This document shows positions 1-20,000 of a stretch of DNA of 20,000 nucleotides, one piece after another. The translations under genes and the position numbers were made by a program. Below the pieces are notes generated by a model. It did not search any database. It saw only the letters and a list, made by a program, of their open reading frames with translations, and was not told the origin of the DNA. The DNA comes from Phyllosticta citribraziliensis (lineage: Eukaryota): positions 2,479,642-2,499,641 of the forward strand of contig NW_027117341.1 in the NCBI RefSeq assembly GCF_038025025.1, read 5' to 3'. Position 1 is the first letter of the stretch, and the number at the start of each line of letters is the position of its first letter.

Positions 1-303
1 CGTCGAGGCGCGCGTCATCCCTTGGAGCTGTGTGAAGATTGTTGCTGCGCTCGACGGGCGTGCTGGGCGCCCTTAGGCCGTCGTTGGTTTCGTCGAGGCG
101 TGCGTCGTCGTCCTCGTTGGATGCAGGGCTTGCAGCGCTCCTGAGCCATCTCGCAGAAAGCCGGACGGGATCCGCCGCACCCACAGCTCGACCACCGCCT
201 CAAAATTTCCACGCCTCTCCACGACGCCGCCCCCTGCCGCGCCTGCATCGGCAGCCCGTGTCCTGACCTCCTGACCGTCGGCGAGAAGTTGAACGGGAAG
301 CCG

Positions 304-329
304 AGAGACAAGGACAGAAGTGAAGAGGT

Positions 330-366
<37 letters not shown>

Positions 367-484
367 TTCGCAGCTTGACGTACCTGACCTTCAACATAAA
401 GTCAAGAGACAAGGACAGGAGTGAAGAGGCAAGTAGCAGTAGCAGCAGCAGCAGATTCGCAGCTTGACGTGTCCGACCTTCAAC
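304..484. repeat. Two-copy tandem duplication (304-395, 405-484) containing an AGC/CAG microsatellite
   Basis: AGAGACAAGGACAGRAGTGAAGAGGYAAG-(AGC)n-AGATTCGCAGCTTGACGT..GACCTTCAAC occurs twice. Copy 1 has (AGC)11 at 331-363; copy 2 has about 7 units, two of them AGT. Confidence 0.9.
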
Positions 485-1536
485 GTGTATGTGAGATGAA
501 AGGTGCTGGCGAAATAGGCGCGAATGTAAGGGAACGGGGAAGCGGCTGCGGTGCGCGACTCAACCCTAGATTCTCGAGGGGCAATGGGGGACGCCGGCAC
601 TCCACACTAGATGACTTGCCCCAAGCAGTAAAGTATTTGACAAAGTGGCAAGCAGAGTCGAAACACCTCACCAGAAGCCGTACTGCTCCAGCAGGCCCGC
701 CCGCTGTCTGATAGCCAGACGCCTCGCTCTTTGTGTCGTCCATCTTGTCCGGCGCAGCGCGCCCGCGGCAATGGCGTGAGCAGGAACTCGAGTGCCGCAC
801 ATGTAGCTGATAAGGAGCATGACGCAGAAGACTGGGTTGACTGTGTTGAGCGTTGGGATGATGTCGCGCGACGACCGGTTGTCAGGCGAGATGGTCCGAG
901 GTTGTGAGGACATCACACACAGCAGCCGTGTTGTGATCAACTCCGGCAGCGGTCTCATTTCCAAAATCCAGCCCCTCAGCACCACCGGCCTCGCCCCCCG
1001 TCCAGCCCGCCGACGTCCCTATCTACAGGCGCCCGGATGGCGCAGCGATGTGGAGTATGACAGCGAAGATGAGGACAGACAGCCATGAGCAAGGGATTGA
1101 GGTAGACGGCGAGTTTGGATGGAAATAGCGGGCCAGCTGAGCTTGTCAATGGCGCGCCGTGTACCAAAGTCGGCGGCCTCGAGGGCGCAAAAGCGCAATT
1201 TGTTGGCACCGAGACGGCGGCTTCGAGGGCTCACATCTTTGCCGCACTGGCGGTTGCAATGAGCAATGGCGCCGTTGTGAGACAACATGCTCCATGCTTG
1301 CCAGGTGTAAATTGTTCTGTTCTTGCGGGGTTGGCGTGACATCATAGCAAGGCTCTTGGGAGGACTGCGCGGTTGAAGACACTTTTCGACAGATGAAGGA
1401 TTGAGATGAGCGAGGATGCATAGATGGAGAGAAGAAGATGGAAAAACTGTGACTGCATGGATGGCGTTGGCGATTATCCGAATTCCATGGCCATTACGAT
1501 GTATCCGAGTAACTGAGACGAGGGATGAGAGGATAC

Positions 1537-2750
1537 CTAGACGGGACGCAGCGAGGTGGAACAGGGACAGACTGCAGGCTGATTGTGAGCGGAGACGAGA
1601 GAAAACGTACATTGCAATTGGAGATGATGGATTGCGAGTGGACGTGGTTCAAGCCAAGCCAAGCCGCCCTTCCCTTCGCTCCAGCACTTGGCCGCGACTA
1701 CAAACGGCGCCGCCGCCAGCCACCCTTTTCGACCTTGGGAACCAACTCTACGCACTTTGTCTCCCGCGTGTGATACAACGCGACTCTCGCCTCGCAGATT
1801 TTCCAAGGCAAAGGAGAAGAAGTCGATGAAGGCCTCGTACGCTTCCGCTGCAGAATACTCGGCCGCGATGGCTTGTGTCTGGTCGTTGATGCTGACAGAG
1901 GTTGTGGTGACGATGGTGGCTGCCAACCGGCGACGAAGGGTGTGGACCACAAGGCCGAGGTAGACAAGGAAGTGTATGCCATGGGAAAATCTTTTGCAGA
2001 CGGAAGAGGCTTTTTGACTGGGGAGGTTGCGGACGCTGTCACGGCGAGGATGTAAGCGCCGCCGTGGTGCGAACAGATTGTAGCGTTGTCGAGGCGAAGA
2101 TTGACATAGAATCTGTGACAGTGAGAGCGCATCTCAAGTCATGAACAAGCCAGCTAAACAGCACTCACGAAGATGACGGTCCAAAAAGTCGTAAATCGTG
2201 TCATAATTCTTGAGCATTTCCTTTCCTAGAGTCGTAAGTCACGGCGCTGAGCCGCGACACCACCATGAAGCGGCAAGCCACTCACATTATCCGAATAGAT
2301 ATGCCGCATCGGCTTGCGCTCTTGTTACGCTCTTTTCAATGCCAGCCGCCAGCCCCTGCAGCGGCGTCGGCACGGCGCCATTGGTGGGAGCGCCGGAGGC
2401 TCGATTGCCATCATGATGCGTACCGTGGCCAGCAATCAACAGCAGTGTCCAAATAGGTCTGCGCCCTGTACAGAACCACAATACGAGACCGCGCATCCCC
2501 CGCCTTAACCATCTTCGCCGCGCACCGAGCTTGCCTACGCCCTCTCGCGTGCCCTCGCCCGCGGCGGCGCTCGACCTCGATTGGTTGCCAAACTCGGCAG
2601 ACAGCTGTGCGAGTTCCTGGCTCGAATCATCTAGCGCGAGTCGAGAGTAGCATCAGCCGTCTGCTTCACTTTGTCAAAGTTGTCGTTTGCTCGGTCGACG
2701 AGGTCGTCCACGGGTACCGACCATGAGGACAACGGTGAGCGATCCGTCAC
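1537..2750 (-). pseudogene. Possible fragmented or spliced gene remnant, product unknown
   Basis: Protein-like stretches in different minus-strand frames (VPVDDLVDRANDNFDKVKQTADATLD; LALDDSSQELAQLSAEFGNQ; PLQGLAAGIEKSVTRAQADAAYLFG; DQTQAIAAEYSAAEAYEAFIDFFSFALENLRGE), but no continuous ORF and no recognised domain. Confidence 0.25.
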
Positions 2751-2851
2751 TATTTATTTCTTCGCGTTGGGTTCTTTCTGGTAGTGCTTCCCTGCTGCTT
2801 CTCGACAAGCGGAGCAGGGACAGCGGTGCAGCATGGAAAAGTTTGGGCTCA

Positions 2852-4546
2852 TCAAGCGTATCCCTTGCCCCACATGACGGGACTCCGTTCCTCCCGGCCC
2901 GCCATGAGCGGCTGATTCCCAACATTAAAGAAAATAGCGGCCAGTACCGCCGCGCGCGCCCACTCAAACTCGCAGCCGACGGGGTCGACGTCGCTGCTGT
3001 ACGCGCCGAGCGGGTGGCGCTCGAGCAGCTTGGCCGCTGCGGCTCGCATGGCCCCGAGCTCCTCGAGCACGTCCGTGTCGGCAAAGACCTGGACGCGCTC
3101 GTTCATCCAATGCCGCAGGTACTCGACTTGGTCCAGCGGGTTCAAAGGGAATGGAGATGGAGATGACTTGTTGACGGTGTCAAGATCAACGGCCATGTCG
3201 GCAATTACGCGCCGCGCCAGCTCCTCGCGCATGGCGACAAAGGCTGCGTACGTGGAGTCTTGGTCCGGCGTTGTGGTGCCGTCTTGTTGCGTCAGCGCTG
3301 CGACGGCCTTGCGCGCCGCGTGTCCCAAAGCAAGGAAGCGGGAGAGGTGCATCTCGTGGGTGTTGGGTTGGCGCTTGAGCGCCTTTTGCAGGAGAGCGAC
3401 CATGTCGAAGAAGATGGAGTTTGTCTTGGAGAACTGCAGCCTCCAGATCGAACTGATGGGCATTTCCGTGCTGGGAGCTCGTAGAGTCGGAAAGCTGAAG
3501 GTTACAATGTCTTCATAGCGCTGGCCTGTGCCCGTCGTGCTTGGACTTGCCGCCAGGCTCGAAGCAGCAGTGGCATCGCGCCTGGCCTCGTCCTGGCGAG
3601 CCAAGTCCAACATCTCTGCCGTGCCAATGGGCTCCGTTGCTTGTGTCGCCTTTTCCAGACGTGCCTTGGTTATTCGCTCCCAAGGCGGGACCGGGGATGC
3701 TGACGCCTTGCGCTTAGGTGGCGAGCAGACTGCCCACCCGAGCACCTCGTCGGGCGAAGCACCAACGGCAGTCTCGGGCGGCTGCAAGCCAAGGCCGACG
3801 CATGGTGCTTGAGTGTACTCGGGCGGCGGCTGCTCATCAACGTAAGGGTTCCAACAGCGTGCCTTTTCCGGGCCCAAGTCGTCGGTCGTGACGGGGTAGA
3901 GATCCCAGCGGTTGACGAGCAGCTCGTCATGTCCGCCTGAAACGTTGAGATCGAGGGCCGCGTCATGAAGACTGCCCCGATGTGCCGCCGCGACGACATC
4001 TTGCAGGACGCCGTCAAGTTTTTCACTCTTTGCAACGTACACATGGACCGTCTTGGTTGTGGTCAGCTTCCGCACGCACTCGATGAGGTACCCAGGCACA
4101 TCATCCAGGGGCCTTTGCACCCGTCTTCGACTCTGGGGCATGATGGTGTAGGGAAACTCGTTGAGTGACAAGGTAACGCGGATACAGTCAATAGAGAGGG
4201 CCGGATTGCTGTGCGCACGAGAGGCGGGTTGCGCGTTGACGGCGGCCTTGGTCACGGGCAGGACCAACAGGACGTCTTTCTTGGGCTTGGATGTCGACGA
4301 GCGAAGTTTGAGGTGTAGATTCAACAATACCAGTTTGCGCGAAACATTGTCCACGTCATGTCCGATCCAAAGAACAAAAGGTGTTTCTGAACCGAGACGG
4401 CCACCACTGCCATCCCCCAGGCGGCCGAGGTACTGCTCCATGCCCGTTTCTTCATCAAGCCATTGAACCACTGCCCATTCGCCTTGAACCTGCCACTCCA
4501 TCTTTGTGTCTAAACAGTGCTCGAGCGTTTTGTGTACACCGGCCAT
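2852..4546 (-). CDS. Hypothetical fungal protein, ~564 aa, single exon
   Basis: Longest ORF in the window. The track starts it at a TTG (4645); the first in-frame ATG is at 4546 (MAGVHKTLEH...). It has a globular-looking N-terminal part, a PPPEY motif, a basic PPKRK stretch, a low-complexity linker and a helical-looking C-terminus. No family recognised. Confidence 0.7.
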   Translation of the reverse strand: MAGVHKTLEHCLDTKMEWQVQGEWAVVQWLDEETGMEQYLGRLGDGSGGRLGSETPFVLWIGHDVDNVSRKLVLLNLHLKLRSSTSKPKKDVLLVLPVTKAAVNAQPASRAHSNPALSIDCIRVTLSLNEFPYTIMPQSRRRVQRPLDDVPGYLIECVRKLTTTKTVHVYVAKSEKLDGVLQDVVAAAHRGSLHDAALDLNVSGGHDELLVNRWDLYPVTTDDLGPEKARCWNPYVDEQPPPEYTQAPCVGLGLQPPETAVGASPDEVLGWAVCSPPKRKASASPVPPWERITKARLEKATQATEPIGTAEMLDLARQDEARRDATAASSLAASPSTTGTGQRYEDIVTFSFPTLRAPSTEMPISSIWRLQFSKTNSIFFDMVALLQKALKRQPNTHEMHLSRFLALGHAARKAVAALTQQDGTTTPDQDSTYAAFVAMREELARRVIADMAVDLDTVNKSSPSPFPLNPLDQVEYLRHWMNERVQVFADTDVLEELGAMRAAAAKLLERHPLGAYSSDVDPVGCEFEWARAAVLAAIFFNVGNQPLMAGREERSPVMWGKGYA

Positions 4547-4993
4547 GGTGGAGTTGCGGTCGGAAATCGAAGAAACGGGGTGTTGCGAACTGTGATCGAA
4601 GCTGTCGACGGTCAGAATGGCATACCGGATATGATGGACCGACAAACCTGATCCAGGACGGAATCGGGAGGCGGGGTTGCAGTAAATCGCGGCGTGGGGC
4701 CGGGCCCGCTGTCGACGCCGTCCACTCGGCGCTGTGCGCGCTGCGGTCGCGCTTACACGCGTCGCACGGGTAGGGCGTGAAGGAGCGGCGCTGCTGGGCT
4801 CGGTGAAGCAGAGCGAGATCGTTGATGGTGTGTGCTGCGTTTTGTTGCGTCTCTGGCGATGCTGGTTCGTGCTGGGGATCCCTAGATGCTCGAGTCAATA
4901 AGCACGGCCAACGAGCCACAGGGCGTCAAAAGACGCGACTTGCACCGGCAGTACTCGACTTCACCGGCTCGACTTCGTTTGCCGAGTGCAGGT

Positions 4994-5212
4994 GTCAACA
5001 AACGCGGCTAACGGGGCACACTTGGTCAAGTCGCAACGGGCGGCTTGCAAGGGCGCTGGCGTCAACACACGCCGCCAACAGGGCACTTTGGGCAGGTCTG
5101 CGATCCAAAGAGGGCGTCGTCAACACATATCGCGGCTAACGGGGCAACCTCTCAATCACATCCCAAGCGTCGACGACGGGGGGATGATGACGACGAGGCG
5201 CAAGCGTCAACA
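4994..5212. repeat. Short dispersed direct repeats GTCAACA-N(2-5)-CGCGGCTAACGGGGCA
   Basis: Copies at 4994-5018, 5061-5085 (degenerate) and 5119-5146, plus a GTCAACACAC half copy at 5206. Confidence 0.6.
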
Positions 5213-5838
5213 CACGTGCGCTGCGGGCTCGCTCGACGGGTCTTGCGCAGAACGAGTCTTGTCGGGGAGACAGGCCAGGCCGGGCTAGGCGAGGATGGAG
5301 AATATGGAAAAGAGCGAGATGGAGCGAAAAAATGATGACAACGGCGATGATGGTGATGGAGGTCAGATGGCCGTGTGTAGGGTGTAGAGTGGTAGAGACG
5401 GGGAAGAGAGCGGACGGGATAGGAGAGTAATAGAGTCGGGTACGTCTAAAGCCGAGGTAAGTTATATATAGCTAGTCTATAGTTAGTTAGTCCTAGGTAT
5501 AAAAATAATATATACTATTATTAGTAACTATATTATTATATTAATTTTCTCTATTTATATATTAATATAACTAATTCTACTTCTTTTAGATCTTCTAGTA
5601 TATCTAGTATCTATAAATATCTTAGAAGTCTTAGTATAGTTATTAATAAGAAATAATAGATATTAGAAGATAAATAATAAAATAAGATCTATTTTAAGAA
5701 ATAAGCTTAAATATAATATAAATAAATAAATAAATACTAAGTTTATTTTATTTTATTTTATTTTAAGAAAAGTTTAGATACTTATAAATAGACTAATAGA
5801 ATAATAATAAGTCTAGTAAAAGAAAAGAAGTCTAAAAT

Positions 5839-6522
5839 CTAGCTAAATACTACTAGACTAGCTACTTATTAAGTATCTTCTATTATAGTTTAGTCCTCTT
5901 TATAAGTATATAGTAGATAATAGAAGTTAGCTATAATATAAATTTCTAATCTAGTCTTCTTTTTAAATTTCTACTATAAAATACTAAGAACCTCTATATT
6001 TCTAGCTAAATACTACTAGGCTAGCTACTTATTAAGTACCTTCTATTATAGTTTAGCCCCCTTTATAAGTATATAGTAGATATTAAAGGGTAGCTATAAT
6101 ATAGACCTTTAATCTAGTCTATTTTTTTAAAAAATATTAAATTTTTAAAAATCTTCTTATTTTTAACTAAATACTATTAGACTAGCTACTTATTAAGTAT
6201 CTTTTACTATAGTTTAGCCCCCTCTATAAGTATATAGTAGAAAATAAAGAGTAGCTATAATATAGATCTTTAATCTAGTTTACTTATTAAAAAAATATTA
6301 AATTTCTAAAAACCTCTTTATTTCTAACTTAATACTACTAGATAGGCTACTTATTAAGTACCTCTTATTATAGTTTAGCCCCTTTTATAAGTATATAGTA
6401 AATAGTAAGAGGTAGTTATAGTATAAACCTCTAATCTAGTCTTTTTTTTAAGAAAATACTAAATTTCTAAAAATCTCTTTTTTTCTATTATAATACTACT
6501 AGAATAGCTACTTACTAAGTAT
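5839..6522. repeat. Subtelomeric tandem repeat array 1 (~161-163 bp unit, 4 full copies + 1 partial)
   Basis: Unit starting CTAGCTAAATACTACTAGACTAGCTACTTATTAAGTA recurs at 5839, 6002, 6163, 6324 and 6485. Confidence 0.92.
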
Positions 6523-6959
6523 ATACTTATATAATAAGGTCTATCTAACTAGTATATAGCTAGTATATAGATATATAGAGTCTATTTTTAAAGAAAACTC
6601 TATTCTATTCCTCTCTATTAAAAAGTAAAGAATCTACTATAGCTAGATTAAAGCTTAAGATATAACTATAATTTAAGCTTATATCTTATATTCTAGTTCT
6701 ATAGTATAGGTCTATAGCTTAAAATACTAAGATATTTTTATTTTTAAAAGTAGCCTCTCTTCTAGTCTTTTAAGTCTCCTACTAGATAAAAAGTAGAATA
6801 AGAAATTTAGATTTTAGTAAATCTATTAAATCTAGTCTAAATATATTTTTATCTAGTAGATATAAGCTAAAGTAATAGAGGAAAAAGTAGAAAGGAGAAA
6901 AAAAGTCTAGTATTTAATAAAATAATAGTAAGTTTATTAAAAGAAGAAAAGTCTAATTT

Positions 6960-7710
6960 CTAGTTAAATACTATTAAAATAGCTACTTATTAAGTACTTC
7001 TTATTATAGTTTAGCCCCTTCTATAAGTATATAGTAAGTAGTAGGGGGTAGCTATAGTATAGACCTCTAATCTAGTCTACTTTTTAAGTTTCTACTTAAA
7101 AATATTAATAACCTCTTTATTTTTAATTAAATACTACTAGATAGGCTACTTATTAAGTACTCTTTACTATAGTTTAGCTTCTTCTATAAGTATATAGTAG
7201 GTAGTAAAAAGTAGTTATAATATAGACCCTTAATCTAGCCTCTTTTTTAAGTTTCTATTTAGAAATACTAATAACCTCTCTATTTCTAACTAAATACTAC
7301 TAGATAGACTACTTATTAAGTACCCTTTATTATAGTTTAGCTCTTTCTATAAGTATATAGTAAATAGTAAGGGGTAGTTATAATATAGACTTCTAATCTA
7401 GCCTTTTTTTTAAATTTCTACTAAGAAAGAGATAGGAAAGAATTACTAGCTAAATATTATTAGACTAGCTACTTATTAAGTACCTTCTACTATAGTTTAG
7501 TACCTTCTATAAGTATATAGTAAATAGTAGAAGGTAGTTATAGTATAGATTTCTAATCTAGTCTACTTTTTAAAAAAATATTAAATTTCTAAGAACCTCC
7601 TTATTTCTAGCTAAATACTACTAGATAGGCTACTTATTAAGTACCTCTTACTATAGTTTAGCCCCCTCTATAAGGATATAGTAAGTAGTAGAAGGTAGCT
7701 ATAATATAAA
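6960..7710. repeat. Subtelomeric tandem repeat array 2 (same unit, 4 full copies + 1 truncated)
   Basis: Unit starts at 6960, 7123, 7286, 7446 and 7607. The last copy is cut at ~7710, directly before the degenerate telomere tract. Confidence 0.92.
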
Positions 7711-7711
7711 A

Positions 7712-7825
7712 TTAAAGTTAAAGTTAGAGTTAAGATTAGAATTAGGATTAAAGTTAAAGTTAAAGTTAGAATTAGAGTTAGAATTAAAGTTAAGATTAGA
7801 ATTAGAGTTAGAGTTAAGATTAAGG
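7712..7825 (+). repeat. Interstitial fossil telomere: 19 G->A-mutated TTAGGG units
   Basis: Strict 6-bp period TTARRR (TTAAAG, TTAGAG, TTAAGA, TTAGAA, TTAGGA, TTAAGG) over 114 bp, in the same orientation as the terminal telomere. Confidence 0.9.
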
Positions 7826-8112
7826 TTATAGTTAAGAAATAAATCTTAAAAGTAATTTATTAAGTAGGTAAAGAGATTAAGAGTTCTACTATTTATATAT
7901 AAATAGTTTTATCTTAAAGCTCTTTAAGAACTTAGTATAATAAAATCTCTTTATAAAGAGCTAGTTATAAAAAGTATTTTAATAACTAAGGTTATTATTA
8001 AGTAAAGACTTATATAACTTATTAATTAGTTTCTTATTTATAATAGATAAATAAGTAAAATATATTAAGTATTAAATTAGAAGTATTATCTCTACTTATA
8101 TAAAAAGAAAGA
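7826..8112 (-). repeat. Penelope 3' end / pseudo-LTR, internal copy
   Basis: Ungapped match to 19600-19886 (offset 11774), differing by transitions. Confidence 0.92.
7881..7933 (-). ncRNA. Type-I hammerhead ribozyme relic, internal copy (RIP-mutated)
   Basis: Minus strand reads AAGTTC-TTAAAGA-GCTTTAAGAT-AAAA-CTATTTATATATAAATAG-TA-GAACTC. This is the layout stem I / CUGANGA / stem II / GAAA / stem III / UA / stem I' after reverting transitions. Confidence 0.7.
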
Positions 8113-8130
8113 TAACTTAAAATTTATTTT

Positions 8131-8553
8131 TATTATAATAGATATATACGCGCCTATATAAGTACTAGAGCTAGTATAGATAAACCTAGTATTATATAGT
8201 TATAAGAAGTATAAGCCTTACCTTAAATAGTAGCCTACTATAGCTTAGGCTAAAACCTATAGGCTAGTACTAGCTACTATAGCCTAGTACTAGCTACTAT
8301 AGCCCTAGGTAGATACTATATAATAGCCTATTAATACCTTACCTTTATAACTTACCTAATAATAACTAAGGACCCTTATATAAAGGATAAGAAATAGAAT
8401 AGTATAAAGGAAGGACTAGAAAATATATAAGTAATAAGTATCTTTTATATTTTATTTTTTTAACTTATTAGATTTAATTAAGATATATATATATTTTCTA
8501 GTAGTTTACTTTTAGCCCTTATCTATATAATAAGAAATCTATAAGTTATAATA
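8131..8553 (+). repeat. 5' LTR (423 bp)
   Basis: Colinear with 15903-16325. Termini TATTATAAT...GTTATAATA/GTCGTAATA fit a RIPed TGTTACGAC...GTCGTAACA inverted repeat. Contains an internal 21-bp tandem duplication CTAGTACTAGCTACTATAGCC. Confidence 0.95.
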
Positions 8554-8565
8554 GATATAAAAGAT
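8554..8565 (+). promoter_or_regulatory. Primer-binding site of self-priming (Tf1/sushi) type
   Basis: GATATAAAAGAT lies immediately after the 5' LTR and is complementary to ATCTTTTATAT(T) inside the LTR at 8440-8451. No TGG tRNA-type PBS is present. Confidence 0.6.
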
Positions 8566-8799
8566 TATTTTAAGTTTTAGCTCTATTCTACTTCTTTATC
8601 TATAAAGGTATTATAATATTTAACCTAAATAATATTATATATAGCTATAGTCTTATATAAGACTACTTATTACTTTTCCCTAGTAAACCTAAGTTATCTT
8701 TATTAGGCGTATTAGTATTATCTAAGGACTAAGGAGTATTAAGTATATATTAACTATAAAAGTCTTTAGTTAAAGCTATAGAGTAATATATAAATATCT

Positions 8800-10286
8800 A
8801 AAAGGTATCCTATTTATAACCTACTTAAGAGATATTCTAAGTAGAAGACTATAAAGATAGTATAGCTAAGAATAAAGCTAATATATCTAGTACTACTAAA
8901 GGTATTAGTACTAGTTAATTAACTTAATAAGATTTATATAAAGGGACTAAAGATTTATATAATACTAGATACTTATTAAATAATAATAAAAGGGGACCTA
9001 CCCCTATTCTCCTATATAATTTCTACTTAGTCCTAGTAGTAGAGGTAAAAGAATATACCTAAGATCTAAAGTTAACTTATATAGTTTAAGCTCTAGTTAT
9101 AGAGGTATTTATAAAGGTACTATACTTAGATATTAATTAATTTAAATCTAAAATTATATCCTTAAATAAGTCTTAAGTATAGTAATAACTAAACTATATA
9201 TAAAGGTAGAACTAGGCTCTTAAGTAAATACTCTTAAACTATACTAATAGACTTAAAGAAGTTTTAAGGGAAGGATATATTAGGCCCTTTTTATTAGCTT
9301 AGTACTTAAGACCTATTACTCTTAAACCTCCTCCTAATTATATAAGAAAAACTACTACTAAAACCTCTATTTTATCTTTAAATAATAAGAAATACTATAA
9401 TAGTAAGGTTTCTAATCCTTTTCTTCTTACTAATAAAGAAGACCCCTTATATAAATACTAGACCCTCCTTATATAAAATAAAATTAAATAAAACTATAAT
9501 TACTTTACTAAAGATATAGTAGAGGAGACTAAATAAAATATTATAAGTTATATTATTTCCTATATTAGTAAAGAAGTCTTATATTACCTAACTCCTTTCC
9601 TTACTTCTTATATAAAGGCTAATAAAGTTACTTTAAATAAGGATATCTTTAAATTCCTAAATAACCTCTTTTAGAGTCTATATAAATATAAGGATATAAA
9701 GAAGTAATTATATTCTTTTATATACTATATCCTTATAGACCTTTAGAAGTTTTAATTAAACTTTATATAATTAGCCTTAGATATAGATCTTCTTTAAGAA
9801 TAGTAAAAAGAGGACTTTTATAATATAATAGATCCTCTCCTTTAAACCTATATAGTTACTATAGAGTAAGATAGGGATATTAACTTTTATAAGTATTTCT
9901 AATAAGCCTACCCTATTACTTAAAGTCTTAGTAACTACTATTCTAACTATAGAAAACTAATACTTATATTATATAAGGAATAAGTAAAGAAGAGATAATA
10001 AGAATAAGTAAAAATAACTATTTTAAATAGTATAAGTACTTTATCTTCTAGTTATATCTAGATATAATCTATATCTAGGGCTCCCTTATATAATATAACC
10101 TATAAAGGTAAAGTAGAAGTCTATATAGAGATTAGACTATATAATTACTATAGCTAGTTTAGCTATTTATAGAGATAATACCTATAACTAGAGATAAAGA
10201 TAATAGAGTTAGTTAAAGAAGAAAGTACTAAAGATATCTATATAAATAAAGAAGATTAGTCTTTATTAGAAAATAATAAGACCTAG
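8800..10286 (+). pseudogene. gag: Gypsy gag (RIPed; start and stop approximate)
   Basis: One frame carries a capsid-like PDPxxLxxxxDPxYExWxxxMxxKxxxNxDHF segment from 9411 and a CX2CX4HX4C knuckle at 10140-10181 (de-RIP C-NY-C-GQFG-H-LQRQ-C). It ends near SENDKT*. Confidence 0.75.
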
Positions 10287-13200
10287 GTAAAGTCTCTTAC
10301 TATAGGTCTAAACTTAGAGTAATATATATTAAGGGTTCTTATATAAATCTTAGTTACTTTATTAGAGGTATACCCTTTACTATATAAACCTTAATTATAT
10401 CTAATAGCTGTGCCTTAGAAATTTATACTCTAGCTAATACTAGTACTAGTAGTATAAGTTTTATTTACTTTAAGCTACTACTAACTCTCTAGTCTATAGG
10501 TACTATAAAAAAGAGAATAATAGGTAAAGGGCTTAATATTACTAGATTTAACTAATATATAAATAAGAAAGTTAATTTTTACTTTTATCTTTAACTCTAT
10601 TTCTAAGATTAAATAGTTTCTACTTATACTTTTATTTATAATATTAGCTATAATAATATAATTCTTAAGTAATAGTTTTTTAACTAGTATAATATCCTTT
10701 TAGACTATAAATAATATAAACTAGTCTAGAGATAGCTACTAGTTAACTAGTCTTTTTAGTATCTTTTATAACTACTAAAAATCTCTATATAAAGTAAAGA
10801 ACTATAGAAAGAATACTAAGTAGATATAGACTATAAAAATAAAAAATTTAATAAATACCTTCTTCCTTCTATATAGGTTATTAAGGGAATTAAATTCTAA
10901 ACTTAAAATATATTTAAGCTTTCTATTTATAAAATACAAGTTATACTAATAGAGATCTATACTATTAACCTTATATAAGTCTAAGTAGCTATTAAAGATA
11001 AGGAAACTAAGGAATTACTAGCTTTTAAGCTACTAGCTACTTATAAAGAATTTTAAGATATATTTTTTAAAATAGAGTCTAATAATCTACTACCCTATTA
11101 TATAAGAGTTAATTATAAAATATCTCTTATATATAATAGTCTATTAGAGCTTCTACTTAGTCCTCTCTATAAAATATCTCTAGAGCAGCTTAAGGCTATA
11201 AAAGAGTATATTATTAAAAACCTTTAAAAAGGCTTTATTATAAAGAGCTTTACTACTTATACTTCTCCTATTCTTATAGTAAAAAAGCCTAGTAGGGGAT
11301 AGAGATTCTATATAGACTACTAATAGCTTAATAAATAAACTACTAAGGATTTATACCCCCTCCCTCTTATTATAGAGTTACTTTAGTATATTAGAAAGGG
11401 TAAGATTTATACTAAGCTTAATATTTAATAAGCTTTTTACTATATTTATCTTACTAAGGATTTTAAAGATAAAACTACCTTCTATATAAGATATAGGTTA
11501 TTTAAATACTATATCTTACTATTTAGATTAAGTAATAGACCTATAGCCTTTTAATATTTTATTAACTAGGTTCTCTTTAAGTATTTAGATAATTTTATTA
11601 TAGCTTTTATAGATAATATACTTATTATCTCTAAAAACCCTATAGAGTATAAGGAATAAGTAAAAAAAGTACTAGTAAGACTATAAAAAGTAGGACTATA
11701 GATAGATTTAAAGAAGAGTAAGTTTTTAGTTACTTATATAAAGTTTCTTAAATATATTATTTCTATAGAAGGTATTTAAATAGACCTAGATAAGGTAGAA
11801 CCTATATAAAACTAGCTAATACTAAAAACCCTTAAAGCTCTTTAATCCTTCTTAGGTTTCTATAATTTCTACTAATAATTTCTCCCTAACTATAGATAAA
11901 TTAGCTAGCTATTAAAGAAACTATACTTTAAGGTAAAATAGTAATAACTAGGACCCTTAAAAGAAGAGGTAATTTAATAACTTAAGAAGCTAATATATAG
12001 TAATATACTTCTAGCTAATTATAACCCTACTCTTAATACTTATATAGAGACTAATATAAGTAATAGAGTTACTACTAGTATTTTAATATAGCTCTAGTAA
12101 TCTTTATATAATTAGAAACTAGTAGCGTTCTACTCTAAGGTAATAGTAGATATAGAACTTTATTATAAAATTTTAGATAAAGAACTACTAGCTATTAAGA
12201 ATAGACTAGAAGAATAGAGACTAATACTTATTAGCCTTAAAAAACCTTTTTTTATAATTATAGACTATTAGGTATTAGAGTACTACTCTACTAAATAATA
12301 ACTTAATTAATAATAAGCTAGATAGTTTAAGTTTTTTATAGAGTTCTATATATAATTCTCCTATTAACTAGAAAAGGAAAATATTATTACTAATTATCTT
12401 ACTTAAAAATAAGAAGACCTAAAGACTTAAAAAGAAAAAATAAGGGCTATATAAGAGATATATCTTATCTTATTAAAGACTATTATTCTTCTTTCTATTT
12501 TAAAATAAGAACTTCCTCCTCTAGTATTATTTTTAAATAAACTCTTCTATATAAACTAAGAAGATTTTAAATTAAAACTTTAAAAATAAAAAGCCCTCTT
12601 AAAGGACCTTAAATAAAGAAATAGTTAGGAACTAAAAAATAGTCTTTTACTATAATATAGTATACTCTTTATACTAGATTATAATAACCTCTATATAAAA
12701 ATACTTAATACTTTATATACTATCTATATAACTACCTATTCTAGTATTATAAAGATATAAAAACTCCTTAAGTAATATTATTATTAGCTAGCTATAAATT
12801 ATATAATTAATATTTATAGGTAAGGATACTATATTTACTACTAAATAAAGGAGTTTTATAATAAAGACCTAGGCCTTTTATAACTACTAGAGATTCCTAC
12901 TTAACCCTAGTAATACTTAGCTATAGATTTTAAAGAGATACCTAAGAACTAAAAAGGCTATAATATAATCCTAGTTATTATAAACTAGTTAAGTTAAAGA
13001 ACCTTTAGCTTACCTTATATAAAGAAGATTAATATTAAAGGAGTCTCTAGGCTTTTTTATAAATATATCTATTATATTTATAGAAACCCTAAGTCTATTC
13101 TATTTAACTAAGGCCCTTAGTTTATCTTAGTATTTATAAATAAACTATATAAGCTAACTAGTATAGAGTAGTATTTTAACTTATCCTACTACTTTTAAAC

Positions 13201-14110
13201 TAATAGTATTATAGAGATTATTAATTAGCATCTTATATAAAGATTAAGACCTTTTATTAATTACTTTTAGAATAATTAGTCTAATCTTCTACTATTAATA
13301 GACCTTATATAAGTAATACTTCTTTATAAAGCTACTAGACTTTTACTTTTTAAGATTAAGTTAGGATATTCCCCTTAATTATACTATAACTAGTAATAAA
13401 GAACTAAAACCCCCTAGTAATTAAAGAAAATAGCTTATATAGTAGTATAAATACTATAAAAGAGAAAATAAGAAGCTTTTAAATTTATAAAAAATCTTAT
13501 TCTTAAATCCTAAGAGTATATATACTAATAAGCTAATAAATACTATCACGTACTAGACTTTATAGTTAGAGATTATATCTATATTAAGAAAATAGAATAG
13601 TCTACTAATTAGTTAAACCTTAAATTAGACTTTCTTAATACTAGACCTTTTAAGATTATAGAAATAGAAGGACCCTTCTATATTCTTAATCTTTCCTTAT
13701 ATATAAAGATAGTTAACCTTTTCTATACTAATAGGCTATATAAGGCTAAAATAGAATAGCTTTTTAGTTAGGAATATACTAAACCTAAACCTAAAATTAT
13801 TTAAGATAAGCCTAAGTAGGAAGTAGACTATATTTAAGCTAGTTAAGTCTTATATAAAAAGCTTTAATACTAAGTTAAATAGACTAGATATAACTAAGAT
13901 AACTAGTAGTATAATATAAGTTCTTTTAGTAGTATACTATAGAAAATTAAAGAATTCTACTTATTATACCCTACTATAGTAGGACTACTAAAAAATCTAG
14001 AAAAATAGAAAACTACCTTCCTTTAAGAAGAACCCTAGATTAAAAGAGAAAGTAATAATAAAATAAGTTACTTAGACTTATAGTAAATATTATAAAGATA
14101 TAAAAAGTAG
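10270..14110 (+). pseudogene. pol: Gypsy pol: protease, reverse transcriptase, RNase H, integrase, chromodomain (RIPed)
   Basis: Same frame at every motif checked, -1 relative to gag. De-RIP motifs: ALADTGA (10427), KGFI..S...ASPIL.VKKPGGGWRFCVDYRQLN (11228), LPFGLSNGPA.FQ (~11515), AF(V/I)DD (11603-11617), VETDASD (~12045), DKELLAI, TDHQALEY, GLLQPLEIP.QPWQHLAMDF (12872), SDRGPQF, QTDG..E..NQ, GPFKI, and chromodomain EWEVD.I..SR....LQYQVKW.GY (~13814). Confidence 0.92.
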
Positions 14111-14210
14111 ACTAATTAGTTTACTATCTACTCTTATATAAATACTATTAATTTTAACTCCTACTCTTTAGTCTCTCTTTTTTATTACTTATTCTTTATT
14201 ATTTCTTTCT

Positions 14211-15800
14211 TTACTTCTTTCCTTTTCCCTTCTTCTTATTATAACTATTATTATATAAGATAGTCTCTTCTAGATCTTTTAGCTTATTAAGTAGGATATT
14301 CTACTTAGCTAAAGCCTAATTAGTTTAATCCTCTACCTTAGCTTAATAGTATAAGTTTTAAAACTTCTCTATATAAATTTTATCTTTATACCTCTTATAA
14401 TAAGTAGGCAGCTTAGTACTTTTTAAGTTACTAATAGTATAGTCTAAGTTACCTATACCTTAAAGGTAGTTAGTATAGCGGCCCTATAAGAAACTAGATA
14501 AGTAGTAATAACTAATAAATATATAAGTATTAGTATTATTATAATACTTAGTATAGCTAATAGGGTTATTAATTCTAGTATACTAGATAAGAAAAGTATT
14601 ATATAAGCTAGCTTAAGTTTTAACTAATAAGTAGTTAAATTACTAAGTAGAAACTATAATATATAAGTAAGATATACTATTACTTAAGGCTAAGATATAT
14701 TTAGTATGCTCTTATACTTTAAAACTACTAAGGCGCACCTATATAGTTAGTTAGATAAGAATCCCTTATATTAGTAAGATAAACTTACTTATATAATACT
14801 CTCTATATTTTTATAAGGAATATAAAGCGTCGACTTAAAGTTCTACTTAATAGGCGCCTTATTAGAGCTAACTAGTAACGCCGTAATATAAATCTTACTA
14901 TTACTACTATTATATAAAGTAGTAGGTAGTAAGTACTTAGCTACTAGAACCTAATAAGCTATAGGATTATAATAATAGTATATATAAGTAGGCTCTTTAC
15001 CTTCTTCCTCTAAAATAGGCTATATAATAGTAAACTAGTAGTAATATAGTATAATATACTAGTTAGTAGTAGGCTATATAGCTATAGATAATAAACCTTA
15101 TATAATAACTAATAATACTAATTAAGTAGAACCTAATACTATAGTATACTATAGATAAAGTAATAAGCCTATAGCTATTTCTAGCTAAATAAGTAAAGCC
15201 TAGCCTAATTAAGTCTTTATATAAGTATCCTCCTCTATAATTATATTAGTTAGTAAGATAGGATAATAAAGTAGTAAAACCTAGATATATAATACTACTT
15301 ATTAGCCTAGATAATAATTAGTAATAGTCTAAAGAGATAGAATTAAAGTTTACTTATCTTAGAACTCTATATAATAGTCTTTATAGATACTACTAGCTAA
15401 AATAGCTCTCTAAGTAAGCAGCGACTATAATAGATTATAAATAATACTATATAATAATAACTTAATACTATAACTCTTATATAATAGTAATAAGTCCTAA
15501 TAGACTAGACTATAATAAGTAGTAGATATATTAAGTATATAGTAGCTAGAAATATCTACTTTACTATTAGTAGGGTATAAATTATTTAAATTATTAGAAC
15601 CTTTATATATAATAGTTAGTTTACTAGATTATAGCTAAATTAGACTAGGGTAATAATATACTTTAATAAGGAGCTTTAGATATAGCTAAGTAAGATAGTA
15701 ACTTTCTATAGGTTATATAGTAAAAGAAATAGTAATAAAAAAGAGATAGTATAGTAGTAGCCCTAGACTAATAATTATACTTTATAACTATATAGAACGC
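14211..15800 (-). pseudogene. Extra antisense, intron-containing gene inside the Gypsy element (unknown product; 5' limit uncertain)
   Basis: The last exon (14738-14211) ends in a coiled-coil-like stretch and KKKGKGKK*. A 50-nt intron at 14788-14739 has a GTAAGT donor, CTAAC branch and TAG acceptor, and joins two protein-like frames in phase 0. A second branch site and acceptor lie at 15253-15235. Confidence 0.6.
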
Positions 15801-15892
15801 TTAAATTACTAAATTACTACTATTATATATTATAAGTCTATACCTATATAAGCGCCTATAGCTACTAATTCCTATAATTTTAGCTTCTCTTT

Positions 15893-15900
15893 AGGGGGGG
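15893..15900 (+). promoter_or_regulatory. Polypurine tract
   Basis: AGGGGGGG, 2 nt upstream of the 3' LTR start at 15903. Confidence 0.85.
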
Positions 15901-15902
15901 CA

Positions 15903-16325
15903 TATTATAATAGGTATATATATACCTATATAAGTACTAGGGCTAGTATAGATAAACCTAGTATTATATAGTTATAAGAAGTATAAGCCTTACCTTAGAT
16001 AGTAGCCTACTATAGCTTAGGCTAAAACCTATAGGCTAGTACTAGCTACTATAGCCTAGTACTAGCTACTATAGCCCTAAATAGATACTATATAATAGCC
16101 TATTAATACCTTACCTTTATAACTTACCTAATAATAACTAAGGACCCTTATATAAAGGATAAGAAGTAGAATAGTATAAAGAAAGGACTAGAAAATATAT
16201 AAGTAATAAGTATCTTTTATATTTTATTCTTTTAACTTATTAGATTTAATTAAGATATATATATATTCTCTAGTAGTTTACCTTTAGCCCTTACCTATAT
16301 AATAAGAAATCTATAAGTCGTAATA
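15903..16325 (+). repeat. 3' LTR (423 bp)
   Basis: Colinear with 8131-8553 and followed by the ATTTT target duplication. Confidence 0.95.
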
Positions 16326-16405
16326 ATTTTTAAAGTTATATAAATAATAAAAGAGATATATTTTAATCCTTAAATAATATTTTAAACTAGTTTAAAGTAT
16401 TATAA

Positions 16406-16435
16406 TTAGAATTAGAATTAGAATTAAGATTAAGA
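16406..16435 (+). repeat. Five degenerate telomere-like units inside the Penelope 3' region
   Basis: TTAGAA x3 then TTAAGA x2, consistent with G->A-mutated TTAGGG. Confidence 0.6.
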
Positions 16436-16699
16436 TCTTAATCTTTTAAAATAATACTAATAACTATAAATACTTAAAGGAACCTATAGAGGAAACTTCT
16501 TATATAAGTATTTATATAAAGAGATATAGTATAATATAGCTATAAACTAATATAAAGTAATATATATAAAGTATATAACTATAGGAGTATATAGTAAACT
16601 ATAATAAAAAGATTAGCTAAGGAGTTAAATTTTAAACTAATATACTAGCTATAAGTAGTAGCCTCTTTAAGGGGGTAGCTACTATAATTTAAATACTAT

Positions 16700-19578
16700 A
16701 AGCTATAAGAATTAGTAGTATAACTAGGTTTTTTAGTATAGCTCTTAGCTCTACTTAGTATTTCTTATAATCTAAATTTAGTATCTTAATAGAGAATTAT
16801 TAAATTTTTATAGTTATATATATTATATATATTATAACTATACTTAAGGGCTTTAATAAATCTTAAATATTATAAATTAACTAGAAGAGACTCTTAAAAA
16901 GATAATATTATTATAGTTTAAGTATCTTTAAGTTTACTTATATAAATATACTCTTAGGCTAGATTATATTTAAATAGTAAAATTAAGAATTCTTTTTATT
17001 TAAAATAAGTTATTAGGCCGCCTAAAAACTATTAATCTAATAAACTAGATAGGTACTTATAATAGTATAAATTAGCTTAAAAGTATTAGTAATACTATAA
17101 GAATAGTAGGTTATCTAAATAGATTATATATATATAAGTAAGTTTAGCTTTAATAAAAGCTTTCTTTACTAATACTAGATATACTAAAGAGAATAGAATA
17201 TATATATAGTAATTTAACTCTTTTTAAAATACTATTATATAAATATCTTTATTAAGGAAAACTTTAATATTAAAAAAGTATATTTAGTAAGTTAAAAATT
17301 TCTAAATAATCTTAAGCCTTAGTATTTTAAAACTAGCTAGTATAGCTTAATAGTCTTAAATTAACCCTTAGAAGATAAGGAAGATATTATTAATATAATA
17401 ATAATAAAAAATAAGTCTATATCTTTTTAACTTATTATATAAAGGTTCTTTAAAGTATATAGTAAATAAGTTAATAATTACTAGAGTATATACTATCCTT
17501 ATAGTAATACTATTATTCTACTTAAAGGTCTTTTTATTATACTTAAAGTAGTTATTATTTAAAATCTAGTAGAGTAAAATAATAATCCTATTATATAGAT
17601 TTTCTTTAAAATTAGTATATTATAAGAGATTCTCTATAATTAGTTTTATACTAATTACTAGAATATTTATATATATAGTAGTAATATTACTAGTAACTAG
17701 AATATATTTTATATAAAAATCTACTATCTTTAGATCCTAAATAAATAACTTTATTCTATTAAGGACTATAAGAAACTAATAAAGATTTTTTTAAAAAAAA
17801 TAATTAATAATTTCTAATATATAAGAAATAATCTAGCTATAACTTAAAATAATAGGCCTCTTCTTTTAAGGTATCTTATATACCTTTAGAATAATATAGA
17901 ACCTTAATAGATTAGTAGTTATAGTATAAAGATATTTTATAATTAGTTTTATCTATTTAAAACTAAGAAGTTATTAATATCTCTTAATAAATTTAAAAGG
18001 ATTAATACTAGTTACTAGCTTATATAACTAAGTATTAATAAGTAGTAGATTATATTATTCTATATACTAATCTTAAAAAAAAATAGTAAGATCTAGATTT
18101 TTATTAGTAATCTTAATAAGGTAATTCTTCTTAGTTAAGAACTACTATAGTATATAAAGCTATAAGTTAAATATATAGGATTAATTAAGAAGAGCTACTA
18201 CTTATAAAAGTAGTATAGCTTCTACTTTATTAATTATTTATTTAATCTTATATATTATAGGTAGTAGATTTTATAGAGACTTAATATAAAACTTTAAATT
18301 AAAATTAGTATTTTTATTATTATAAAAGAACTATTAGATTCTAATTATATACCTTAATTATTTTATTACTTAAGGTAGGAGGGAGTTATTCTTTTAAATA
18401 TAAAGAATAAATTTTTTATTTAGTAATAATTATTATTTTATCTCTAAAGGAAGAGATATTTTAAGAGTAAAGAAGTAATTATTTTAATATAATAAAATAA
18501 AATTTATAAAGTCTAGTAAGAAGTAGAGTAAATTAAAGTATATATATATATATAAATTTAAATTAAAAAATTTTAAGGGATAAGAGAGTATATCTCTTAA
18601 ATTAAAATACTTATTAATAGTATCTTTTAATTAAATTAGCTTAACTATTATTTCTTCTTTCTATTTAGCCTTTCTTTTTTATAAGTAACTAGTAGCTACT
18701 AGTACTTTACTACTTTAATTAGTTTAGAATAGCTATTTAACTTTAGTTAACCTTATAGTAGAAATAAATAATAAGTAGACTATAAAGTAGTTATATAATA
18801 TACTTTTCTAGGTTCTTAGAGTCTTTTTATTATATACTATAAGAGTATATTAAACTACTTACTTAATTTATTAAGAGATATTATTAATAATAGTATTAGA
18901 TATCTATATATCTATATCTTTTTTAAGCTTAAGCTTAGATATTTTTAATACTAGGTTATACTAGTATTTAGTAAATCTAATAGCTATAGCTTTATAATAA
19001 AGCTTAAGACTATTAGTTTATATATAGTTTAGTTTATTAATATAAAATAATATATATATTATTTTACCCTTTTAATTAATATTTAATATAAATATAGACT
19101 TAAAGAGCCTATAGATATCTTCTACTTTTTTAATTATAAAGTTTTTAAGTCTTATAAATAAGATTATCTTTAATAAGAACTTATACTTTTTCTATTTTAA
19201 CTAGATAGAAGCTTCTAATATAGAGTATTATATTATATAAACTATATAATTTAAAGTAAAATACTATTTTTATTATTAGCTTATATCTTTAAATTCCTTT
19301 ATTATTTATATAATTAGTAATTTTAGGGATCCTAATAAGACTAAGAAAAAGATACTATTAATAAAGTATCTTTTAAAACTTAATAGGGTTATCTAGATAT
19401 AAGAGGCTTTAACTATAATATTAAAGAACTTATAATATAGGGTTATAAAGTAGTATATAAAAGTCTTTAGTATAATTTAATAGAGCTTATTAATTATTAC
19501 TATACTAGTAAGGTTCTAGATATATATATTAAGGTTAACTATAGTAATAGGACTAGTAAGAGTAATTAAAGTAGGTAT
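16700..19578 (-). pseudogene. Penelope-like ORF: N-terminal coiled-coil-like region plus reverse transcriptase, ~950 codons in one frame (C-terminal limit approximate)
   Basis: De-RIP translation in a single frame: probable start MPTS (19578), H..NGT.P....GSLK.P..Q..KEF, KKDADVQM, LSLN.KFIPH, KFHVKS.WNPPP, TDKNLGLAV....WY (DKNLG at 18105-18091), PRFHVIPKVHK.PWKGRPI.PSHSWIT (~17905-17825), LVTGDVTAMYTNIP (17700-17659), Q..GIAMGTACAP.IANLF (17520-17464), RYIDDIFLIF (YIDD at 17397-17386), FLDI, YMYIPFSSAHP..VKKAFIKAEL.R...ICS, NL.RRGYP, LPSEYNP.WEY. No GIY-YIG domain seen. Confidence 0.9.
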
Positions 19579-19599
19579 AATTTAATAAGTAGGTTAGAA

Positions 19600-19886
19600 T
19601 TATAGTTAAGAAATAAATCTTAAAAGTAATTTATTAAGTAAATAAAGAGATTAAAAGTCTTACTACTTATATATAAATAGTTTTACTTTAAAGCTCTTTA
19701 GGGACTTAATATAGTAAAATCTCTTTATAAAGAGCTAGTTATAAAAAGTATTCTAGTAATTAAGGTTATTATTAAGTAAAGACTTATATAACTTATTAGT
19801 TAGTTTCTTATTTATAATAGATAAATAAGTAGAATATATTAAGTACTAGGTTAGAAGTATTATCTCTACTTATATAAAAAAAGAGG
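19600..19886 (-). repeat. Penelope pseudo-LTR, terminal copy, truncated and capped by the telomere
   Basis: Matches 7826-8112, is preceded by the telomere-like linker AGGTTAGAA (19591-19599), and runs directly into TTAGGG repeats. Confidence 0.92.
19655..19707 (-). ncRNA. Type-I hammerhead ribozyme relic, terminal copy (RIP-mutated)
   Basis: Minus strand reads AAGTCC-CTAAAGA-GCTTTAAAGT-AAAA-CTATTTATATATAAGTAG-TA-AGACTT. Combining both copies gives GAGTCC CTGAAGA GCY-TTAA-GGY GAAA CTACTT-N6-AAGTAG TA GGACTC. Confidence 0.72.
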
Positions 19887-20000
19887 GTTAGGGTTAGGGT
19901 TAGGGTTAGGGTTAGGGTTAGGGTTAGGGTTAGGGTTAGGGTTAGGGTTAGGGTTAGGGTTAGGGTTAGGGTTAGGGTTAGGGTTAGGGTTAGGGTTGGG
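19884..20000 (+). repeat. Telomere (TTAGGG)n, chromosome end
   Basis: AGGG, then 18 perfect TTAGGG units (19888-19995), then a final TTGGG at the end of the window. Confidence 0.99.

Follow-up and report, generated by a model that had tools for sequence, protein, structure and literature searches.

Remnants of a probable type-I hammerhead ribozyme in the RIP-damaged pseudo-LTRs of a telomeric Penelope-like element of Phyllosticta citribraziliensis

Results

The DNA analysed here, referred to as the window, is a stretch of 20,000 nt of contig NW_027117341.1 of Phyllosticta citribraziliensis (positions 2,479,642 to 2,499,641, forward strand) and is a chromosome end. Positions 1-5400 are GC-rich (59% GC), the sequence from about 5500 to 19883 has a GC content of 17-24% and a saturated RIP signature, and the present telomere, (TTAGGG)n on the plus strand, occupies positions 19884-20000, to the window end. 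A 597-codon open frame in the GC-rich part (2852-4645, minus strand) and four further frames of 137-197 codons are without a Pfam family at E<=0.001. The marks of RIP are an excess of TpA (TpA/ApT of 1.71 in the AT-rich part versus 0.50 in the GC-rich part), the loss of CpA and TpG [(CpA+TpG)/(ApC+GpT) of 0.01 versus 1.25] and differences between repeats that are exclusively C>T or G>A.

The AT-rich part contains two direct copies of a pseudo-LTR unit of about 285 nt, both on the minus strand, which are 92.9% identical over 281 nt (7826-8106 versus 19600-19880) or 91% identical in a longer alignment of 295 positions, where 26 of the 26 differences are transitions. The distal (5') copy (19600-19883) carries a TATA box, a hammerhead relic and a sequence that we refer to as the anti-core box; it is truncated on its 5' side by the live telomere, which it abuts. 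The proximal (3') copy (7826-8130) is made up of the unit proper (7826-8106) and 24 nt leading up to the insertion of another element, which has split off its upstream part (16345-16391, minus strand). This proximal unit directly follows some 130 nt of RIPed TTAGGG repeats (7700-7830, plus strand), a former telomere onto which the element appears to have been added. Telomeric sequence in reverse-complement orientation is found at two further places on the minus strand: an internal tract of about seven RIPed repeats lies between the 3' UTR and the proximal pseudo-LTR (16392-16436), with a perfect 20-nt palindrome at its junction (16426-16445), and a short RIPed stretch resembling the TAACCCTAACC of related elements is located between the distal hammerhead and the start codon (19592-19605). 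We note that the centromere-proximal side of the old telomere repeats is occupied by a RIPed tandem satellite (5794-7710) whose 161-163-bp units are 73-87% identical to each other.

The split in the proximal pseudo-LTR is due to a RIPed Ty3/Gypsy LTR retrotransposon of 8.2 kb (8131-16339, plus strand), opposite in strand to the Penelope element. Its 438-bp LTRs (8131-8568 and 15903-16339) are 95% identical, a polypurine tract, AGGGGGGG, precedes the 3' LTR, and a 5-bp target duplication, ATTTT, is found at 8126-8130 and 16340-16344. On account of these paired LTRs, polypurine tract and target duplication, the Gypsy element is a clean nested insertion between the Penelope open reading frame (ORF) and the proximal pseudo-LTR and not a part of the Penelope element. 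Relics of a Gypsy reverse transcriptase (RT) and of two RNase H families (about 11279-12337) were all that a Pfam search of the six reading frames, with X in place of stops, returned. The would-be hammerhead cut sites in the two pseudo-LTRs lie 11774 nt apart, and subtraction of the 8214 nt accounted for by the Gypsy element and its duplication leaves a unit of 3560 nt.

Between the two copies, and on the same strand as the hammerhead relics, lies the RIP-ruined ORF of an endonuclease-less Penelope-type RT (16765-19578, minus strand; about 935 codons in one frame with many stops), which bears out the proposal of an earlier note on this DNA, made from the sequence alone, that the element is of the Penelope type. 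The 3.15 kb between 16437 and 19590 yielded no Pfam match in the six-frame scan with stops read as X. One minus-strand frame has a stop density as low as 0.05, a drop also seen in the Gypsy RT that served as control, and purine periodicity agrees with this choice of frame. A phmmer search of 1.84 billion representative sequences with that frame, with X at the stops, returned 380 matches at E<=1e-3, the best of which is a 941-residue protein, P0004 (E=1.5e-108). BLASTP aligns the relic at 5e-132 and 29% identity; the alignment spans 916 residues, stays in one frame and has 13 gapped positions, so the damage to the ORF is of the point-mutation type made by RIP; the relic is colinear with P0004 to within nine residues of the end of the latter.

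P0004 and its relatives carry the motifs TDKNLG, IPKVHK..RPI, GDVKAMYTNIP, QKNGIAMG, RYIDDIF and FLDV. The DKN signature of P0004 (ITDKNLGLAV) and its RYIDDIF motif have their counterparts in the relic, ITNKNLDLTI and YYINNIF, at the aligned places. RVT_1 was the sole family in all eight relatives scanned, none of which thus has a GIY-YIG endonuclease, and the nearest solved structures by sequence are those of group II intron RTs and telomerase RT (E of 1e-4 to 4e-4). An RT-only architecture together with the DKN motif is what is given for Coprina-type Penelope-like elements (PLEs) in published accounts of these elements (PMC13159263, PMC8557442). The location is likewise that of a telomeric element, the window being a chromosome end in which the sense strand of the element is the C-rich strand and telomeric repeats are found on both sides of it, with reverse-complement repeats near the hammerhead. 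Judging from these motifs and this layout, on which the clade placement rests, the element is probably an endonuclease-less, Coprina-type PLE.

The two hammerhead relics, at 19655-19707 (distal) and 7881-7933 (proximal) on the minus strand, share the same order of parts: the 5' strand of helix I, a 7-nt core-like box, helix II, AAAA, helix III, TA and the 3' strand of helix I. The distal relic reads AAGTCC, CTAAAGA, GCTTTAAAGT and AAAA with AGACTT as the return strand, and the proximal one AAGTTC, TTAAAGA, GCTTTAAGAT and AAAA with GAACTC as the return strand. The earlier note had credited both copies with exact type-I geometry; the order and spacing of the parts hold in each, but helix I forms five of its six pairs rather than all six in either relic, and helix II of the proximal relic, a 3-bp helix with a TTAA loop and a G.U pair in both, now pairs at only two of three positions. 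Helix III has seven to eight pairs, A15.1-U16.1 included. With pairs counted permissively for RIP, both copies have the three helices of the motif (six pairs in helix I, five of them present-day, three in helix II and eight in helix III). The core-like heptamer, CTAAAGA versus TTAAAGA, departs from the type-I catalytic core in both copies: A replaces G5 (at 19699 and 7925) and G12 (at 19684 and 7910) and, in the proximal relic, T replaces C3 (at 7927), the other core letters being present. It is for these substitutions that the two stretches are classed as relics rather than as active hammerheads. G5 and G12 are essential for hammerhead catalysis, and the present copies, whose would-be cut sites fall between 19661 and 19660 and between 7887 and 7886, should therefore be catalytically dead.

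Searches that consider only the present-day sequence do little to identify these relics. A descriptor with a RIP-permissive core, applied to positions 5500-19883 on both strands (28.8 kb of AT-rich DNA), finds exactly these two sites; with present-day pairs the distal relic passes and the proximal one fails, owing to the lost pair in its helix II. Dinucleotide shuffling (300 replicates) put the chance expectation at 0.057 sites with present-day pairs and at 0.30 with RIP-permissive ones, and sites with a helix III of at least eight pairs occurred in 2/300 and 7/300 shuffles, respectively. No Rfam hammerhead family matches the window at gathering score or at E<=10, even when the search is confined to a 73-nt stretch, and the top Rfam match is a miRNA-precursor model, a match that reflects the hairpin alone. 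The 53-mers folded alone do not adopt a hammerhead fold; in a context of 101 nt, a long imperfect hairpin forms on both strands (z of -2.0 to -3.5), and the relic region as a whole is an 80-nt imperfect palindrome. On the present letters alone, the case for a hammerhead is weak.

Foremost among the evidence are therefore the un-mutated relatives, since it is from these, by sequence comparison, that the proof of hammerhead identity comes, and not from the present-day letters of the relics. Alignment of 15 RT relatives led to 76 related loci on metagenome contigs, mostly of 3.4-4.1 kb (L numbers below). A strict descriptor (CYGANGA, GAAA, A15.1-U16.1, H17 not G and three helices) detected a sense-strand hammerhead in 53 of the 76 and an antisense one in a single locus, for a total of 41 distinct sequences; the 23 loci without a hammerhead by this descriptor include some short contigs. 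When the descriptor was relaxed to accept either purine at G5, G8 and G12 and either pyrimidine at C3, 55 sense-strand motifs were found and none on the antisense strand. Fifty-four of these are canonical, with G at all three positions, and one has A at position 12. The refuting observation named in the earlier note, A rather than G at the core positions of less-mutated sequences, is therefore not what the relatives show. Several relatives read AGTCC, CTGATGA, GCCTTCAAGGC (or GCCTTTAAGGC), GAAA, helix III, TA and GGACTCT; the core of the L001 group is CTGAAGA. That the two copies were mutated at different sites and jointly restore the GTCC/GGAC pairing, as the earlier note put it, agrees well with these sequences, as the copies together give AGTCC/GGACT, the helix I strands of several relatives; helix II is shared with the relatives as well.

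Hammerheads with an intact core and covarying stems, which the same note recommended looking for in less-mutated copies, exist among the relatives. In an alignment of 32 relatives, 88.2% of the cells at paired positions are paired, versus 28-33% in slid controls, and none of 500 shuffles reached the observed covariation score; five of the six pairs of helix III have changed on both sides, and all letters of the catalytic core are invariant. Rfam (release 15) returned no hammerhead match at gathering score in 20 related loci, intact relatives included. L059 scores 22.5 bits with RAGATH-1-hammerhead and 21.9 bits with Hammerhead_3, and L001 has no Rfam hammerhead match at E<=10. Since Rfam at gathering score misses even intact relatives, the Hammerhead_1 check proposed in the earlier note would be uninformative, and the lack of Rfam hammerhead matches in the window is a result of low power.

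To relate the relics to these hammerheads, the hammerhead regions of six relatives were aligned locally to both strands of the 28.8 kb of AT-rich DNA with tolerance only for changes in the RIP direction. The top match fell on the unit copies, on the minus strand, for five of the six. Scores were 98.5 for L059 (null 57.6 +- 6.6), 93 for L053 (62.2 +- 4.9), 92 for L054 (63.8 +- 7.6), 85 for L001 (65 +- 6.2) and 82.5 for L032 (67 +- 8.6), this last being below the null maximum of 87.5; L011 (65.5, under its null mean of 81.5 +- 7.3) had its top match elsewhere. Twenty-two columns are invariant in the 32 relatives. At the eighteen that MAFFT aligned, each copy either has the invariant letter or departs from it by C>T or G>A; the remaining four (one loop A, U16.1 and the first two letters of the helix I return strand) were gapped by MAFFT and placed by hand according to structure, the relics there having A, T, and then A/G with G/A. 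A ten-sequence alignment displays a common layout of TATA box, hammerhead, anti-core box, short TAACCCTAACC-like telomeric stretch and ATG. Under a covariance model built from the 32 relatives, the distal relic scores 6.3 bits (E=3.1), no better than an unrelated site, and the proximal relic is absent from the matches at E<=10, a weak result attributable to the training of such models on GC-rich, intact members, which leaves them blind to RIPed copies. It is thus the alignment to the relatives that shows descent from an intact hammerhead, the score of the present letters under the model being weak.

A chance resemblance, in which an AT-rich, RIPed palindrome mimics a hammerhead once G/A and C/T ambiguity is allowed, would be compatible with the 0.30 sites expected per 28.8 kb of shuffled DNA under RIP-permissive pairing, with the helices I and III that an 80-nt imperfect palindrome supplies for free, with the lack of Rfam matches and with the mere 6.3 bits under the relatives' model. 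It does not account for the letters, spacing and flanks being the same as those around the intact hammerheads of the relatives of the adjacent ORF, on the correct strand and at the correct distance from the start codon, nor for the absence of any further descriptor site in the window, and we consider it largely refuted and very improbable. What is directly observed comprises the two copies and the fact that they are homologous to intact hammerheads, the ORF relic between them, the layout, and the signature of RIP. The best explanation of these features, to which we assign a probability of roughly 0.92, is that the 53-nt stretches were once an active type-I hammerhead of an endonuclease-less, telomere-attached, Coprina-type PLE that was killed by RIP.

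The relatives also reveal how an undamaged unit is organized. Their hammerhead lies about 70-210 nt upstream of the ATG and is repeated one unit downstream, with periods of 3403 nt in L002, 3420 nt in L054, 3681 nt in L020, 3747 nt in L031 and 3837 nt in L011, versus 3560 nt in the window. Forty of the 76 related contigs begin and end with the same bases, a stretch of exactly 123 nt in 35 cases, and several ORFs wrap around the contig ends; these units came out of assembly as 3.4-3.9-kb circles or tandem arrays, which implies circular or tandem templates. A TATA box is invariant in the aligned relatives, 17-25 nt upstream of helix I, a position that suggests that transcription may start at the hammerhead or just before it. 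In the window, the TATAAA box of the distal copy (19724-19729, minus strand) is located 17 nt upstream of helix I and aligns with the invariant TATA of eight relatives (columns T17, A18, T19 and A20); that of the proximal copy is at 7950-7955 on the same strand. Reverse-complement telomeric tracts occur twice per unit, one lying about 250 nt before the hammerhead and the other about 60 nt after it (L066 and L071 are further examples); in the relatives, a conserved GGGTTCAAACCC motif that resembles a small hairpin precedes the upstream tract. In L001-L009 this upstream tract is (CCCTAA)6-7 and occupies the same place as the internal tract of the window (e.g. L001:1628-1663 and L002:3126-3161).

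These tracts bear on whether the copy in the window arose in one step. A true hammerhead relic could also have come about through two additions, in which a proximal promoter/hammerhead module of about 360 nt was first added alone and the ORF-bearing element later attached to new telomere repeats. Telomeric repeats are indeed found on both sides of the proximal module (7700-7830 and 16392-16436), copies of endonuclease-deficient PLEs are described as commonly 5'-truncated by short telomeric stretches and arranged in head-to-tail arrays (PMC6431247), and a comparison of the repeat unit with the ORF segment yielded no similarity above the null. The internal tract nonetheless looks like part of the unit, since L001-L009 have it at the same place (its distance upstream of the hammerhead is 262 nt in L002 and 244 nt in the window) and the sequence just before it can be aligned by eye with the window. 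Moreover, the L054 and L060 contigs, like Coprina-1_Alen as it is described in PMC13159263, consist of repeat, ORF and repeat between telomeric repeats. We accordingly find two additions unlikely; the internal tract of the relatives and contigs such as L054 would rather favour a single event, with a more-than-unit template.

A further conserved feature of the unit is the anti-core box. In the window, CTCTTTA (19643-19649, minus strand, in the distal copy; 7869-7875, minus strand, in the proximal copy) lies 11 nt after the cleavage site and complements the TAAAGAG of the core strand; because of this complementarity, the palindrome and long hairpin of the window are not accidental. In the relatives (L001-L061), the cut site is followed 11-20 nt later by a box complementary to TGANGAG. 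Among 40 distinct hammerheads, the complement is exact in 18 and holds at six or more of seven positions in 31, one of these 31 boxes being at +41, probably by chance. The box reads CTCATCA, or CTCTTCA where N7 is A, such that N7 and its partner in the box change together: the pair is U and A in most relatives, and A and U in the window and the L001 group. L015, in which N7 is A, has a one-base deletion in its box. RNAfold predicts the hammerhead as the minimum-energy fold of the motif alone in three of three relatives' motifs and, once 25-30 nt more that include the box are added, an extended hairpin pairing the core with the box in five of five relatives.

One reading of this arrangement is a two-state switch, in which the box would pair with the CUGANGAG core strand such that the motif adopts the hammerhead fold by itself and the extended hairpin in the longer RNA, with pairing of the unit ends and a circular or panhandle template as the outcome. 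After two cuts, pairing of box and core would hold together both ends of the unit-length RNA, and the circular or panhandle template so favoured could lead to more-than-unit reverse transcription at chromosome ends. Such a switch, if real, would explain both the repeat-ORF-repeat copy in the window and the 40 of 76 contigs with identical ends. We offer it as a tentative model that is possible rather than probable. Circular templates were tentatively proposed already in 2014; the switch is the new part, and neither the main text of PMC4209133 nor the titles and abstracts searched mention an anti-core box.

Alternatively, the conserved structure may serve mainly as a promoter-proximal, end-pairing hairpin or as a fold recognized by the RT, self-cleavage being dispensable for retrotransposition. 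The prediction of the extended hairpin as the minimum-energy fold in all five relatives once the box is included would suit such a role, as would the reports on the animal PLE PAc that hammerhead mutants were without effect on in vitro insertion and that no reads started or ended at the cut site (PMC11167929), and the proposal for rotifer elements that the fold itself exposes telomeric repeats (PMC6431247). A catalytic core that is invariant in 32 relatives is, however, hard to explain without catalysis, and the monomer of a fungal PLE hammerhead is reported to cleave at rates of 1.97 per min in 10 mM Mg and 0.16 per min in 1 mM Mg (PMC4209133), so that we hold this alternative to be rather improbable.

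Discussion

Telomere-attached (Coprina-type) Penelope elements of fungi have been known to carry hammerheads since 2014, and the window holds a dead, RIP-inactivated representative of this kind. According to PMC4209133, Penelope hammerheads cut precursor RNA of tandem or repeat-flanked copies, and those of fungal telomeric PLEs belong to type I, have a large helix III and cleave in monomeric form. Compared by description rather than letter by letter, the relics of the window and these fungal hammerheads are both of type I, with a large helix III, a short helix II and no evident loop-loop contacts, and both reside in the flanking repeats of an RT-only telomeric element; unlike those in PMC4209133, the core in the window has been destroyed by RIP (A at G5 and G12, and T at C3 in one copy).

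Similarly, and again by description, Coprina-1_Alen of Ascochyta lentis (PMC13159263) shares with the window its ascomycete host, its place at the extreme tip of a chromosome between telomeric repeats, and an RT ORF enclosed by direct repeats a few hundred bp long; the direct repeats of Coprina-1_Alen are given as 63 and 255 bp (422 bp in full), and its RT has the DKN motif. It is described as intact and transcribed, with two ORFs, unlike the window with its single RIP-ruined ORF and nested Gypsy element. The 3' end of the Athena/Terminon elements of bdelloid rotifers, as presented in PMC6431247, resembles the window in having a hammerhead fold with reverse-complement telomeric repeats downstream of it, and copies that telomeric repeats cap or truncate. 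In Athena/Terminon the reverse-complement repeats come immediately after the hammerhead, whereas in the window and its relatives some 55-65 nt that include the anti-core box intervene, and a second telomeric tract is present about 250 nt upstream of the hammerhead. A further parallel is with the retrozymes (LTR-type in plants, non-LTR in animals), as generally described, where a unit-length RNA is likewise bounded by hammerheads located in terminal repeats, and a circular RNA has been proposed as template; retrozymes are non-autonomous, unlike the unit in the window, which encodes its own RT.

The analysis shows that confident identification is possible even for a ribozyme that has been erased too far for covariance models to detect, by reading through RIP to the neighbouring ORF, moving from there to un-mutated relatives and comparing layouts. 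It also adds one more ascomycete chromosome end to the few described Coprina-type telomere caps. The related contigs supply natural, intact hammerheads accompanied by a conserved TATA box, an anti-core box and two telomeric tracts, and they make the question of what Penelope hammerheads do more testable.

Read inward from the chromosome end on the sense strand of the element, the layout is in turn the telomere, the truncated pseudo-LTR (TATA box, hammerhead, anti-core box and short telomere-complement, in this order), the RT ORF, the 3' UTR, the internal telomere-complement tract, the full pseudo-LTR with the second hammerhead, and the old telomere. While the element was active, cleavage by each hammerhead would have taken place after GUA, and two cuts would have freed a one-unit RNA carrying the ORF, 3560 nt in length without the Gypsy element; we infer that self-cleavage and a unit-length RNA of this sort did once occur. 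Endonuclease-deficient PLEs are described in PMC6431247 and PMC8557442 as attaching to G-rich overhangs by way of reverse-complement telomeric repeats beside the hammerhead, a scheme that the window fits in that the sense strand is the C-rich strand, telomeric repeats flank the element and a telomeric stretch is found about 55 nt after each hammerhead. The window records the order of events as the old telomere, addition of the element, insertion of Gypsy, RIP and the present telomere.

RIP converted essentially every CpA and TpG in the element, turning G5, a TpG site, and G12 into A, weakening helices I and II and placing stops throughout the ORF. G5 could not have survived, since it sits in a TpG, the context preferred by RIP acting on the other strand, and the (CpA+TpG) index of the AT-rich part is down to 0.01. 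Among the relatives, comparison of the hammerheads of L060 (327-387) and L054 (361-421) reveals C>T and G>A changes in helices I and II (e.g. GGTGAAA for GGCGAAA), and the changes in the L060 hammerhead may represent an early stage of the same decay.
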